Below are positions 32,366 to 35,405 of a stretch of DNA of 64,000 nt, in pieces. The position numbers were made by a program, and so were the translations under genes. Source of the DNA: Candidatus Iainarchaeum sp. Its GTDB lineage: Archaea > Iainarchaeota > Iainarchaeia > Iainarchaeales > GCA-2688035. The notes below the pieces were generated by a model. It did no database searches. It was given only the letters and a program-made list of their open reading frames with translations, and was not told the DNA's origin. The stretch is taken from contig JAFCCL010000001.1 in NCBI GenBank assembly GCA_017610205.1, positions 122,805-186,804 of the forward strand, in the 5' to 3' direction. Within the stretch, counting starts at the first letter, position 1. Each line of letters begins with the position of its first letter.

Positions 32366-35341
32366 TTAATCTGCCTTCAATTTGTCTCTAAGTTTTAATC
32401 CAATTACACTGCTTTTTTGTTTGTTAACAGCAACGCCAATAATTTGGTTGGCTTCCTGCACCAAAGGATCGTTGTGAGTTATTGCAATAAACTGGCTTTG
32501 GTGGCTTATTTTTTTTATTATAGTGGCCATTTTTACACTGTTTTCCTTGTCAAGTGCAGAGTCTGCTTCGTCAAACACATAAAATGGAGCAGGTTCATAA
32601 ATCTGTATTGCAAAAAGGAACGCAAGTGCAGTCATTGTCTTTTCTCCCCCGCTCATTGAATCAATGTTTTTAATGTTGTCGCCCTTGTGCTTTGCCTGAA
32701 TCAAAAGCCCTGCCTCCAAAGGGTTTTCCCGATTGCTTAACTCAAGTGCCCCTTCACCATTAAACAATGTATTAAACATTTTTGAAAAGTTTTTGCTTAA
32801 TTCATCAAAACATTTCATAAAAACACTTGTTCTCTTCACATCAATTCTTTCAATCATTTCAATAACAGCAATTTTTTCCTCATCAAGCTTTTCAACCTTT
32901 TTTCTTACATCTTTAACCTCTGCTTCAAGCTGATTGTACGATTCTAATGCCTTCATATTAATTGCACCAAGCTCTTTGACTCTTTTTTCAATTGCTTCAA
33001 GCCGTTGGTTTAATTTTGCCGGTTCAAAGTCTGGAATTGTTTCAACTCCCTTAAATTCTTTGGTCTCTTCATTCAAATCAGCGGCTCTTACTTCACGCTT
33101 GCTTTTTTCAATAAGCAGGGTGTTTACCTGTTGAACAATGCTTTTAAGCCTTGTATGGATTTTTCCAATTACAGATTCAAATTTTGCAATACCCCTGTCT
33201 GCCTTTTCCTTTTCTTCAACCATCTTTTGACCGTGTCTTTCAGACTCGCTTACTTTTGCCTCCAAAGCAGAAGTCTTTTCTACCAATGCCAGCAGTTCCT
33301 TTTCACCGAAACCAATTTCAGAAGAAATCTTTTCATTTTCTTCCTTTAACTCAACTATTTCGTTCAAAAGCACCTTCTTTTGTTTTTGCAGTTGCTCCGA
33401 AAAACGGTTTTGCAAATTTTCCTTTTCCTGCTTTAGTGAATGTTCCTGTTTTTCAAACTCTGAAAGCTTGTCGCTTACAACTGTAAAAGTGCTTAATCCA
33501 ACCCCTTCACTAAATGCCTTAATTTTTTCTTTTTGAGCCAAAAGCCCTGTTCTTTTTTCAGATTCTTTTCCTTCACCAATACCAATTTTTTTCAAAAGGT
33601 CGCTATAATCATTTTCAATAAGCCATTGTTTTAGCAAAGCAAGCTTTTCTCGTTTTTTTGTAAAATCTTCCCTTAATTCTTTTAAATCAGCTGTTTCGAC
33701 TGCAAGTGCTTTTTCTTTTTCTGAGGACTCTCTTAGTAATGCAAGTCTTGAATCAAGGTCTTTCCTTCTCTGCTTTAAGGTCTGTTCTTTAATCAAAATT
33801 TTCTTAAGCAATCCCTCTTTTTTTACCTTTAAATTTTCACTTTTTCTTTTTTCAAGCTGTGAATCACATACAGGGCATTGGGCAAAATTTTTTCCAAGCA
33901 TTTCAATGCTTTCGACAACACCTTTCTTTTCGGCTTCTGTTTCCTTCAAAACCTCCAATGCACGCTCGCCCTCCCTTTGTGTTTTTGCAAGAGTTTCAGA
34001 AATATTTCCAAACTTTTTTCTCAATTGTGCAAGAAGCCCTGCCTTTTTTTCCCTTTCCAGAACTTTTGCCTCTGCTGATTCAATTGCCTGAATTGTTTCC
34101 CTCATAACCTGCTTTTTGAATTCTGTTTTCTGTTTTATTCCATTAAGCAGGACTTTTTTTTCAAAAAGTTCTTCATTCAAAGAAGCAAGTTCTGAAGTGG
34201 TTCTTTCCATAACTGCATTCATTTCAGTAAGTTTTCTTTCCTTTTGTTCTGCATCGCTTTGAAGCAGGTTCTTTTTTTCAGCAGTTTCTTTGATTTTTTT
34301 TCCAAGTACTTCAAGTTCGGCATTTATTTCGCTAACCCTTTTCTTTTGAATTACTGCCTCTTCTTCAATTATCAAGGTCTTCTTTTCAAGTACTTCAACA
34401 GTTGTTTTATTGCGTTCAAACAACCGGTTTTTGTTCTCCAGTCTTTCCGCAGCCAGTGCCTTTCCTGTTCTGGCCTCTTCAAGCTGTGCTCCAACTGTTG
34501 CATAGGTTTCTTTTCTTTGAGAAAGAATAAGCTTGTTTAATCTTTCTGATTCGTCTTTTAGTTTTTTCTTTTCTAAAGAATCTTTATCTGTTTTGGATTC
34601 AAGCTCTTTTTTTTCAGCCTCAAGCACTTCAAGTTTTTCAGAACACTCTTTTTCACTTTTTTCAAGCTTTTCAATTTCTGAAAAAATAATTGTTGCCTTT
34701 ATTTTTCTGTTTTCGTCCTGCAAGCTTTCAAATTCTGCAGCAGAATCCTTGTCTTTTCTCATTTGTTCAAGATAATTTTCTCTCTCCTGCAAAACAATGC
34801 CTGCATCCCTTAGCTTGTTGTCAACTTTTTGCAATTCCTTCAAAGCCTCGTCCTTTTTTGCATCAAATTCCTGAAGCCCTGCAAGCTCGTCAATTATTTG
34901 CCTTCTTTCAATTGGGCTCATTTCAATAACTCTTGTGGTATCGCCCTGTACAACAATGTTGTGCCCATCTGGCTTTATGCCAAGTTCAAGGAGCAATGAT
35001 ACAATTTCGTTTCTTGTCTTTCTTTTGCCGTCGAGTCTGAAAACACTTTTGCCCTTTTTGTCAATCATTCTTTGCACAAGGTATGTTTTGTCACCTTCCT
35101 TAATGGACAATTCTACTTTGGCGTAGTTTTCAACAGCATTATTGTTTACAAGCTCGTCAATTCTGCTTACCCTGAGCATTTTCATGCTTGAAGTGCCAAG
35201 TACAAAAAGCAATGCGTCCAAAATATTTGTTTTGCCTGAACCATTGCTTCCAACAATTGCAGTAAAACCATTGCTTAACGGAATGTCAGCCTTCTTAAAA
35301 GACTTAAAATTTCTTAAAACAAGCTTTTGCAATTTAACCAT
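32366..35341 (-). CDS. smc: Condensin-type Smc ATPase with central CPVC zinc hook and no recognisable hinge
   Basis: NFKSF, GSNGSGKTN, VVQGD, ERRQIIDELAG, GAINMKALESY, MSGGEK, FDEADSALD; CPVC at aa 489-492 of 991. Confidence 0.88.
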   Translation of the reverse strand: MVKLQKLVLRNFKSFKKADIPLSNGFTAIVGSNGSGKTNILDALLFVLGTSSMKMLRVSRIDELVNNNAVENYAKVELSIKEGDKTYLVQRMIDKKGKSVFRLDGKRKTRNEIVSLLLELGIKPDGHNIVVQGDTTRVIEMSPIERRQIIDELAGLQEFDAKKDEALKELQKVDNKLRDAGIVLQERENYLEQMRKDKDSAAEFESLQDENRKIKATIIFSEIEKLEKSEKECSEKLEVLEAEKKELESKTDKDSLEKKKLKDESERLNKLILSQRKETYATVGAQLEEARTGKALAAERLENKNRLFERNKTTVEVLEKKTLIIEEEAVIQKKRVSEINAELEVLGKKIKETAEKKNLLQSDAEQKERKLTEMNAVMERTTSELASLNEELFEKKVLLNGIKQKTEFKKQVMRETIQAIESAEAKVLEREKKAGLLAQLRKKFGNISETLAKTQREGERALEVLKETEAEKKGVVESIEMLGKNFAQCPVCDSQLEKRKSENLKVKKEGLLKKILIKEQTLKQRRKDLDSRLALLRESSEKEKALAVETADLKELREDFTKKREKLALLKQWLIENDYSDLLKKIGIGEGKESEKRTGLLAQKEKIKAFSEGVGLSTFTVVSDKLSEFEKQEHSLKQEKENLQNRFSEQLQKQKKVLLNEIVELKEENEKISSEIGFGEKELLALVEKTSALEAKVSESERHGQKMVEEKEKADRGIAKFESVIGKIHTRLKSIVQQVNTLLIEKSKREVRAADLNEETKEFKGVETIPDFEPAKLNQRLEAIEKRVKELGAINMKALESYNQLEAEVKDVRKKVEKLDEEKIAVIEMIERIDVKRTSVFMKCFDELSKNFSKMFNTLFNGEGALELSNRENPLEAGLLIQAKHKGDNIKNIDSMSGGEKTMTALAFLFAIQIYEPAPFYVFDEADSALDKENSVKMATIIKKISHQSQFIAITHNDPLVQEANQIIGVAVNKQKSSVIGLKLRDKLKAD

Positions 35342-35405
35342 AAAAAATCCCCTTTAAGCAAAAAAGGTTTGTTATATAAAAAAAGGTGAATTACTTTAAA
35401 TTCTT

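Follow-up and report, generated by a model that had tools for sequence, protein, structure and literature searches.

This study identified a gene for an Smc (structural maintenance of chromosomes) protein that has no globular hinge and that carries, at the hinge position, a motif of the Rad50 zinc-hook type. The gene lies on the minus strand at positions 32366..35341 of a 64,000-nucleotide window (the whole stretch of DNA that was analysed) from Candidatus Iainarchaeum sp., taken from an assembly of 1.37 Mb in 24 contigs that is 92% complete (contig C3:122805-186804, the C labels being those of this analysis). Our preferred reading, to which we would give a probability of about 0.82, is that the protein is the organism's single Smc, the predicted ATPase of an Smc-ScpAB condensin, with its hinge replaced in frame by a Rad50-type zinc hook. 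A first-pass annotation of the window had proposed such a hinge-less, zinc-hook condensin and had listed a detectable hinge, heads clustering with Rad50 and an unconserved CxxC as observations that would tell against it. No hinge was detected, the heads grouped with Smc and the CxxC was found to be conserved in orthologues, all of which supports the proposal.

The open reading frame (ORF) of 991 amino acids (aa) starts with ATG and ends at a stop codon (nucleotides (nt) 32366-32368), and the plus-strand frame is riddled with stops; the first-pass annotation had given the length correctly without naming a strand. The gene was recognized from the ORF list and its translation, from a Pfam SMC_N match covering aa 4-976 (3.4e-45, 154.6 bits) and from a score of 502 bits with the NCBIfam model SMC_prok_A. 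All of the ATP-binding cassette (ABC) head motifs (Walker A, Q-loop, signature, Walker B, D-loop and H-loop) were located, their key residues are invariant in 22 orthologues, and the canonical Smc head and neck motifs quoted earlier all stand at the residues given for them. The N-terminal half of the ATPase head (aa 1-156; 34874..35341, minus strand) holds the Walker A motif GSNGSGKT at aa 31-38, the Q-loop VVQGD at 130-134 and ERRQIIDELAG at 145-155; K37 and Q132 are invariant in the 22 orthologues, and PDB 4I99 matches aa 4-171. The C-terminal half (aa 792-991; 32369..32968, minus strand) holds GAINMKALESY at 792-802, the signature MSGGEK at 896-901, the Walker B/D-loop FDEADSALD at 923-931 and the H-loop histidine H956, with S897, D924, E925, D931 and H956 invariant; PDB 5XEI matches aa 743-989 and 5XNS aa 805-989.

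Profile comparisons agree that these heads are Smc heads and not Rad50 heads, as had been proposed. Among NCBIfam models SMC_prok_A ranked first (502 bits, E 3e-150), followed by SMC_prok_B (387 bits), with much lower scores for ASRP (92.3 bits), the Rad50 models (77 bits or less) and arcadin-4 (53 bits); the respective cut-offs are 729.4 bits for TIGR02169, 300 bits for ASRP (NF045487) and 700-1087 bits for the Rad50 models. Matches of the heads to the PDB likewise listed Smc heads first (5XEI at 1e-95, then 5XNS, 4I99 and 3ZGX; range 1e-95 to 1e-39), and Rad50 heads reached only 5e-15. The ascending arm helix (aa 157-482; 33896..34873, minus strand) has a single predicted break at 445-446, and the best-aligned stretch of TIGR02169 spans the N-terminal head and this arm, placing aa 4-480 at profile positions 2-494 of 1165. 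The descending arm (aa 498-791; 32969..33850, minus strand) is predicted as two helices, 498-763 and 774-791, interrupted at 551-552, 577-579 and 614-616, and the best stretch of TIGR02168, aa 498-974 on positions 678-1170 of 1181, spans this arm and the C-terminal head. Since the SMC profiles are aligned as far as position 494 and again from 678, the heads and full-length arms are present and about 183 hinge positions are absent. Both SMC models match 22 of the 22 aligned orthologues. The full-length AlphaFold2 (AF2) model, built on a 22-row alignment with a mean predicted local distance difference test score (pLDDT) of 77.4, consists in its middle of helix 157-482, loop 483-497 and helix 498-763, that is, one long helical hairpin, in keeping with the coiled-coil middle noted earlier; in this predicted fold, as in the SMC profile alignment, the arms are of canonical Smc length. 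The heads and both arms are orthologous to those of canonical archaeal Smc.

The SMC hinge has been proposed to dimerise the protein, to bind DNA and to act as a DNA gate, and the importance of its specific fold is debated. The globular hinge is absent from the window Smc: the Pfam SMC_hinge model (PF06470) found no match in it at E<=1, which bears out the earlier remark that no hinge is visible. Across the whole 92%-complete genome the best PF06470 match had an E of 0.125, below the cut-off, and the same search exceeded the cut-off in 10 of 14 control genomes. Profile searches of this assembly found no second, hinged Smc either.

Between the two arms lies the putative zinc-hook loop (aa 483-497; 33851..33895, minus strand), which is the only non-helical turn at the apex of the AF2 model and was assigned from the invariant C489/P490/C492, the hook profile, hhalign and AF2. 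The single midpoint CPVC reported by the first-pass annotation was found there, at aa 489-492 (nt 33866-33877, minus strand). It is unique and central, because the protein holds just four cysteines (233, 489, 492 and 844). A profile of the apex plus 45 aa on each side, built from 31 sequences (A2) and searched against all PDB chains, matched solved hooks: the Pyrococcus furiosus Rad50 zinc hook 1L8D (E 1.7e-12), the rod form of that hook, 6ZFF (7e-12), and human RAD50 5GOX (0.006), with the next match at 0.059. When the apex was aligned by hhalign with the clade's own Rad50, CPxC fell on CPxC (probability 97%, E 1e-10), and after removal of the four CxxC columns from both sides the same register was still top, scoring 33.5 (E 7e-5) against 15.5 for the next. 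In Foldseek an AF2 model of a 94-aa hook fragment (pLDDT 89.3) had two 1L8D chains at ranks 1 and 2 (template modelling score 0.85, root-mean-square deviation 2.1 A, E 0.07-0.14). A predicted complex of two aa 420-560 copies (alignment A1) with one Zn scored 0.15 and 0.13 against a mark of 0.42; it was run without controls and is counted neither way. The apex of the window Smc is a CPxC hook with flanks matching solved Rad50 hooks.

The 25 aa C-terminal to the hook carry a mean net charge of +1.9 in the 31 Smc sequences compared with +0.6 in 13 Rad50 sequences of the clade. At four positions past the hook most of the 22 sequences in alignment A1 have lysine, the consensus being CPVCDSxLxxxKKxxLLxKK. 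It is speculative, on sequence grounds, that this basic stretch might act as a substitute DNA-contact patch.

The hook is widely conserved. Matches to the window Smc were found in 39 of the 41 genomes sampled from its genus, family and order, the two genomes without one being 84% and 81% complete, and in 13 of 13 related genomes that are at least 90% complete. All of the 30 loci returned, the window's own included, contain exactly one C..C motif, a central CPxC, which reads CPVC in 23, CPTC in four and CPIC in three. Across 22 full-length orthologues (82-35% identity) C489, P490, C492 and L482 are invariant and a leucine four residues past the second cysteine is kept in at least 90%; a further lysine pair is merely the majority residue, and the flanking coiled coil is otherwise barely conserved. 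A search of 5.8 billion clustered proteins, in which 8000 candidates were scored and 578 reached E<=1e-30, gave a similar picture: of the best 120 clusters, which were inspected, 118 have a central CPxC and two do not, and their domain listings name PF06470 in none and PF04423 in five. The distance from Walker A to the hook is 455-460 aa and that from the hook to SGGE 404-409 aa (in the 96 of 120 proteins whose three motifs were found by pattern), so that arm length is steady within about 3 aa despite divergence to 37% identity. Throughout the lineage, strong purifying selection acts on the hook and on arm length. The databases name these relatives 'AAA family ATPase' (NCBI) or 'chromosome segregation protein'.

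Two further observations concern individual relatives. Short-armed hook Smc proteins occur in L054 (795 aa) and L057/L175 (831 aa), with the CPxC at aa 385 or 416; compared with the 991-aa form, each strand of their arms is about 70-105 aa shorter, which puts them outside the 3-aa length class of the majority. A hook Smc 61% identical to that of the window is encoded by L050 (JAFCBY010000019.1), a record titled 'Candidatus Falkowbacteria bacterium', and this bin or contig label is probably wrong.

The protein could also be an Smc orthologue in which the CPxC loop serves just as a turn in the structure, or else as a redox or disulphide element, with dimerisation achieved through arm-arm and head-kleisin contacts. 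What speaks for this is a set of relatives in the same order that share the architecture and lack both cysteines. Neither a Pfam hinge nor a central cysteine was found in the Smc proteins of L174 (G023:C4), L056, L176 (G027:C77) and L177 (G039:C74) or in the proteins P0095 and P0099, a group 901-954 aa in length; their apex aligns at the hook position and reads as an 'ELS/ELG'-type turn. One of these genomes, G023, is 99% complete and keeps both ScpA and ScpB. A hinge-less SMC clade without CxxC has, moreover, been described from ocean metagenomes in the accessible part of PMC12153180. The heads of the cysteine-free relatives nest in or beside the hook clade, which suggests that the cysteines were lost secondarily. 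A mere turn sits poorly with an invariant CPxC and an equally invariant leucine seven residues before the first cysteine, with a family profile whose matches to solved Rad50 hooks with bound Zn extend over 89 columns (E 1e-12), and with an hhalign register that persists once the cysteine columns are taken out. We regard this explanation as unlikely.

Very unlikely, in our view, is that the protein is no condensin Smc at all and is instead a Rad50-like or ASRP/ClsN-like protein that was always hooked and has Smc-like heads. A central CxxC hook and a length of about 1000 aa do resemble hook-bearing SMC-related proteins, scores are indeed obtained with the ASRP model (92 bits) and with the Rad50 models (no more than 77 bits), and most ASRPs carry zinc hooks according to excerpts of PMC9389158. 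The Smc models nevertheless score five to six times higher and align along both arms. The genome's real Rad50, a separate protein of 687 aa with its own CPTC hook (G000:C1:9464-11524), shows the reverse ranking, with 176 bits for Rad50 models against 70 bits for SMC_prok_A, and it is also the only match at E<=0.001 that the ASRP model finds elsewhere in the genome. Rad50 was found in 40 of 41 genomes of the class. An Mre11-like protein of 410 aa is encoded at G000:C9:752-1981 (Mre11_Sulfo 92 bits, below the model cut-off). This gene and the short Rad50 stand on separate contigs, and no Mre11-sized ORF flanks Rad50.

The phylogeny of the heads points the same way. The tree comprised 87 rows and 371 columns and was inferred by an IQ-TREE quick search under LG+C20, with support from the Shimodaira-Hasegawa-like approximate likelihood ratio test (SH-aLRT) only. 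A branch of length 3.18 (100% support) divides Rad50, represented by seven of 14 loci (L160, L161, L163, L165, L169, L170 and L173), from every Smc in the tree. Inside Smc, the hook proteins adjoin the hinged Smc of the same class (L144, L146), and the nearest outgroups are the hinged Smc of sister orders. The window protein falls in well-supported hook-Smc clades that nest among hinged Smc. The Rad50 C-heads missed E<=1e-3 against the Smc C-head hidden Markov model (HMM) and were therefore aligned under looser thresholds (best domains 18-30 bits). Loci whose ORFs are truncated, fused, duplicate or intein-bearing were left out (L017, L021, L022, L034, L041-L044, L050, L051, L059, L072, L143 and L148), as were the archaeal-type or short loci L057, L069, L074, L075, L081 and L104, most cyanobacterial rows (N-head split by an insertion) and L090, whose longest ORF had no HMM match. 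Long branches lead to L178, L179, L076 and L106, and seven rows have an unusual amino-acid composition. A Rad50 identity was rejected on HMM scores and this tree.

A non-Smc identity would also leave ScpA and ScpB without an Smc partner. The genome encodes ScpA on contig C16 (a Pfam match of 47.7 bits, above the cut-off of 24.6) and ScpB on contig C10 (104.9 bits, above 27.4), and among genomes of the class that are at least 85% complete each of the two was found in 60 of 61. We know of no report that ASRPs pair with ScpAB. The genome search suggested earlier thus recovered ScpA, ScpB, a separate Rad50 and an Mre11-like gene, and the window Smc is the only Smc-type gene found in its own genome, alongside ScpA and ScpB. 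That it might be an accessory Smc paralogue, for instance a defence ATPase of the Lamassu or MADS kind, with the true hinged Smc missing from the assembly, is extremely unlikely: the 24 contigs, 92% completeness and PADLOC matches (mad3 170 bits, LmuB 72 bits) leave some room for it, but those scores (JetC, at 24.5 bits, included) lie far under the 502 bits for SMC, the protein has a match in 39 of 41 related genomes with no second full-length copy per genome among the rows listed, the families of the 97-99% complete one- or two-contig genomes G037 (f16) and G038 (f17) have a hinge in 0 of 1 and 0 of 4 genomes, ScpAB co-occurs throughout the class, and no recognisable defence gene is present among the five neighbouring ORFs scanned with Pfam. 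The candidate identity of a defence ATPase was rejected, the PADLOC matches being too weak beside the SMC score.

Several points weigh against a hook-bearing condensin Smc. The window Smc falls under the NCBIfam SMC equivalog cut-off (502 against 729.4 bits), and for this reason the score alone cannot separate hinge loss from general divergence, although a shortfall is expected with a domain missing and, judged from the sequence, is consistent with the absent hinge positions. A 92%-complete genome may have lost a gene in assembly, for this one genome at least. The Pfam hook model Rad50_zn_hook (PF04423) has no match to the window Smc even at E<=1, so that the hook call relies on the family profile and the orthologues; the hinge-versus-hook scan put forward in the first-pass annotation accordingly held up for the missing PF06470 and failed for PF04423 on the window protein, the latter model passing its cut-off on the orthologues L054 (25.5 bits) and L179 (33.6 bits) and reaching E<=0.1 in 16 of 22 A1 members. 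No Foldseek match of the 94-aa hook model reached E<=0.001, and this comparison lends weak support only; its E-values are non-significant because helical hairpins are common. The head tree contains no ASRP, ClsN or Sph sequences, and the exclusion of these proteins, including the rejection of an ASRP identity, consequently draws on HMM scores only. Close relatives that are both cysteine-free and hinge-less imply that the lineage can do without the metal site, and they weaken the case for an essential hook. The mechanism, in zinc binding, dimerisation, ScpA binding and ATPase activity alike, is entirely our inference.

On the preferred reading, one tetrahedral Zn2+ would be held by two cysteines from each of two protomers, as in Rad50, and the resulting constitutive apex dimer would take over the dimerisation role of the hinge. 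Helices of about 320 and 295 aa would pair into a rod, the heads would be engaged by ATP, and ScpA, carrying ScpB, would close the ring by linking one head's neck to the other head's cap. The chromosome would then be organised as by a hinged Smc-ScpAB, without hinge-specific DNA contact.

The distribution of hinges in the phylum bears on how this arrangement arose. A hinge was found in 19 of 201 sampled genomes. Of these, 17 belong to five families with the label 'same class', in which 19 genomes were searched, and their Smc proteins are 1009-1182 aa long; other orders of the same class have retained a hinged Smc. The other 30 families have a hinge in only two of 181 genomes, G197 and G029. 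In G197 it is a 40.7-bit fragment on a contig of 1633 nt (C241), and the genome has its own CPVC-hook Smc on C47; the fragment is likely contamination, because the bin is rated at 3% contamination. The second genome, G029 ('same order', 78% complete), encodes a hinged, short-armed Smc that over its full length is nearest to the short Smc of the Aenigmatarchaeota type (about 30% identity) and has an N-head 45-48% identical to that of hook Smc; it may be an ancestral relic, a transfer or a binning error. On the head tree the hook label needs three changes, of which well-supported branches force only two, and a single clade of all 38 hinge-less rows was not rejected by the approximately unbiased (AU) test (p 0.51), the group having been chosen after the tree was seen.

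The hook was most likely derived from Rad50 by a domain swap into Smc in the ancestor of this Iainarchaeota order, and the ancestral state would have been hinged. Whether the whole order runs its sole condensin on a Rad50-derived hook, acquired by a single in-frame replacement of the hinge, is a wider claim, to which we would give even odds.

Other Smc forms were encountered in the survey. The 1084-aa protein of L178 (G024:C1:501000-507000), from a one-contig genome that is 94% complete, has a middle without CxxC and without a Pfam hinge at E<=0.1; its non-coiled stretch might be a degenerate hinge, and its branch in the head tree is long. Some Smc genes, of hook as well as hinged form (loci L051, L072 and L143; proteins P0111, P0113 and P0116), have an insertion of about 525-610 aa just after Walker A, with ORFs of 1379-1787 aa. 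It splits the N-head HMM at about profile positions 36-46, three database relatives list the intein domains PF14890 and PF14528, and these insertions are probably P-loop inteins. Four short Smc proteins of 810-849 aa (L058, L060, L064 and L067, in records titled Aenigmatarchaeota or uncultured archaeon) combine a full hinge (110-129 bits) with much shortened arms. They share a well-supported head-tree clade with L061, L062, L065, L066, L068 and L071 (827-861 aa, without a central CxxC), which are alike by length and tree only. This short-armed hinged form is a different route of Smc shrinkage in DPANN.

Compared with canonical Smc (5XEI, 5XNS and 4I99; 3ZGX of Bacillus subtilis), the window Smc agrees in head motifs, neck, both arms along their full length, its position in the archaeal Smc tree and the presence of ScpA and ScpB in the genome. 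It differs in having a CPxC loop of about 15 aa where canonical Smc has a hinge of about 183 positions, and in a length of 991 aa, hinged Smc in our sample being mostly 1100-1300 aa (short-armed forms 810-861 aa, a few 1009-1060 aa). With the Rad50/SbcC hook (PF04423; 1L8D, 6ZFF and 5GOX) it shares the CPxC, the leucine seven residues before the first cysteine and that four after the second; it is unlike Rad50/SbcC in its heads, in having no Mre11-like neighbour, the usual arrangement for Rad50/SbcC, among the five ORFs scanned and in a somewhat more basic C-terminal hook flank.

The closest known system is engineered. According to the accessible part of their paper, Buermann et al. (2017) swapped the hinge of B. 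subtilis Smc for the P. furiosus Rad50 hook; the resulting Smc(Zh) showed near-normal arm association and supported normal growth, and they concluded that chromosome segregation in B. subtilis does not depend on how the dimerisation domain is folded (PMC5344682). The reverse swap was made in Rad50 by Tatebe et al., as excerpts of PMC6969161 describe. The window Smc resembles Smc(Zh), as far as the consulted text of PMC5344682 goes, in joining Smc heads and arms to a Rad50 hook, and the top PDB match of the natural hook is that same P. furiosus hook. The natural junctions lie near the hinge boundaries, as counted in profile positions of the SMC models and not in B. subtilis residue numbers. The window form differs from the chimera in being natural, archaeal, fixed across a whole order and steady in arm length within about 3 aa, and it is known here from sequence alone. 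The first-pass annotation had suggested that the protein would bear on whether a hinge is needed for loop extrusion; it would provide a natural case, and the need for the hinge fold had been settled in part by the engineered Smc of B. subtilis (PMC5344682, consulted in part).

Two natural groups deserve comparison as well. ASRPs (ClsN/coalescin, Sph1/2) are likewise archaeal members of the SMC superfamily with a zinc hook instead of a hinge, as stated in parts of PMC9389158 and PMC9764264; in ClsN, a protein of about 68 kDa, about 350 aa form coiled coil (PMC9764264), whereas the window Smc is of Smc length after subtraction of the hinge and scores 92 bits against the ASRP cut-off of 300. The Actinobacteria-like hinge-less SMC clade from ocean metagenomes (PMC12153180, 2025) is natural too and has heads and arms without a hinge, but the accessible text states that CXXC is absent, and the clade resembles the cysteine-free relatives and not the hook form. 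Our literature search found no natural hook-bearing Smc, with most subscription journals and supplementary files lying outside it, and the word 'zinc' does not occur in Yoshinaga and Inagaki (2021).

The five neighbouring ORFs scanned with Pfam encode a Lon_C-domain protein, a GPDPase_memb-like membrane protein, ribosomal protein L44e, a protein without a Pfam match and a GT4 glycosyltransferase. None is mre11, scpA or scpB, as the first-pass annotation had stated (nurA was not searched for). Inspection by eye of the 64-nt intergenic region upstream of the gene (35342..35405, minus strand) gave two putative elements, a candidate TTTATATA box that occupies 35373-35380 and precedes the ATG by 32-39 nt, and a run of GGGG at 35349-35352. 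A search for sequencing runs containing the gene returned none, RNA data included.

If the preferred reading is right, the window Smc is a natural counterpart of a laboratory chimera, a hinge-to-hook swap kept across many DPANN families together with ScpA and ScpB and with near-invariant arm lengths. Its interest to the SMC field is real, tempered by the engineered precedent and by support that is computational only. These archaea would be wrongly counted as having no condensin in surveys that define Smc by its hinge or by an equivalog cut-off, and annotation pipelines label the protein 'AAA family ATPase'. The Iainarchaeota sampled here would offer natural, co-adapted material for biochemical and single-molecule work on hinge-independent Smc, all within one phylum: hook forms with long (985-1025 aa) or short (795-831 aa) arms, cysteine-free forms, and hinged forms in other orders of the class. 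The finding supports the idea that arm geometry, and not the fold of the dimerisation domain, is the constrained element. Should a single hook replacement be true, nature could dispense with hinge-specific functions, among them DNA binding by the hinge, its opening as a DNA gate and its contact with the heads; selection would fix arm length and phase, and the Smc-ScpAB of some daughter lineages, which would later have lost the cysteines too, would work without any dedicated dimerisation module at the apex.

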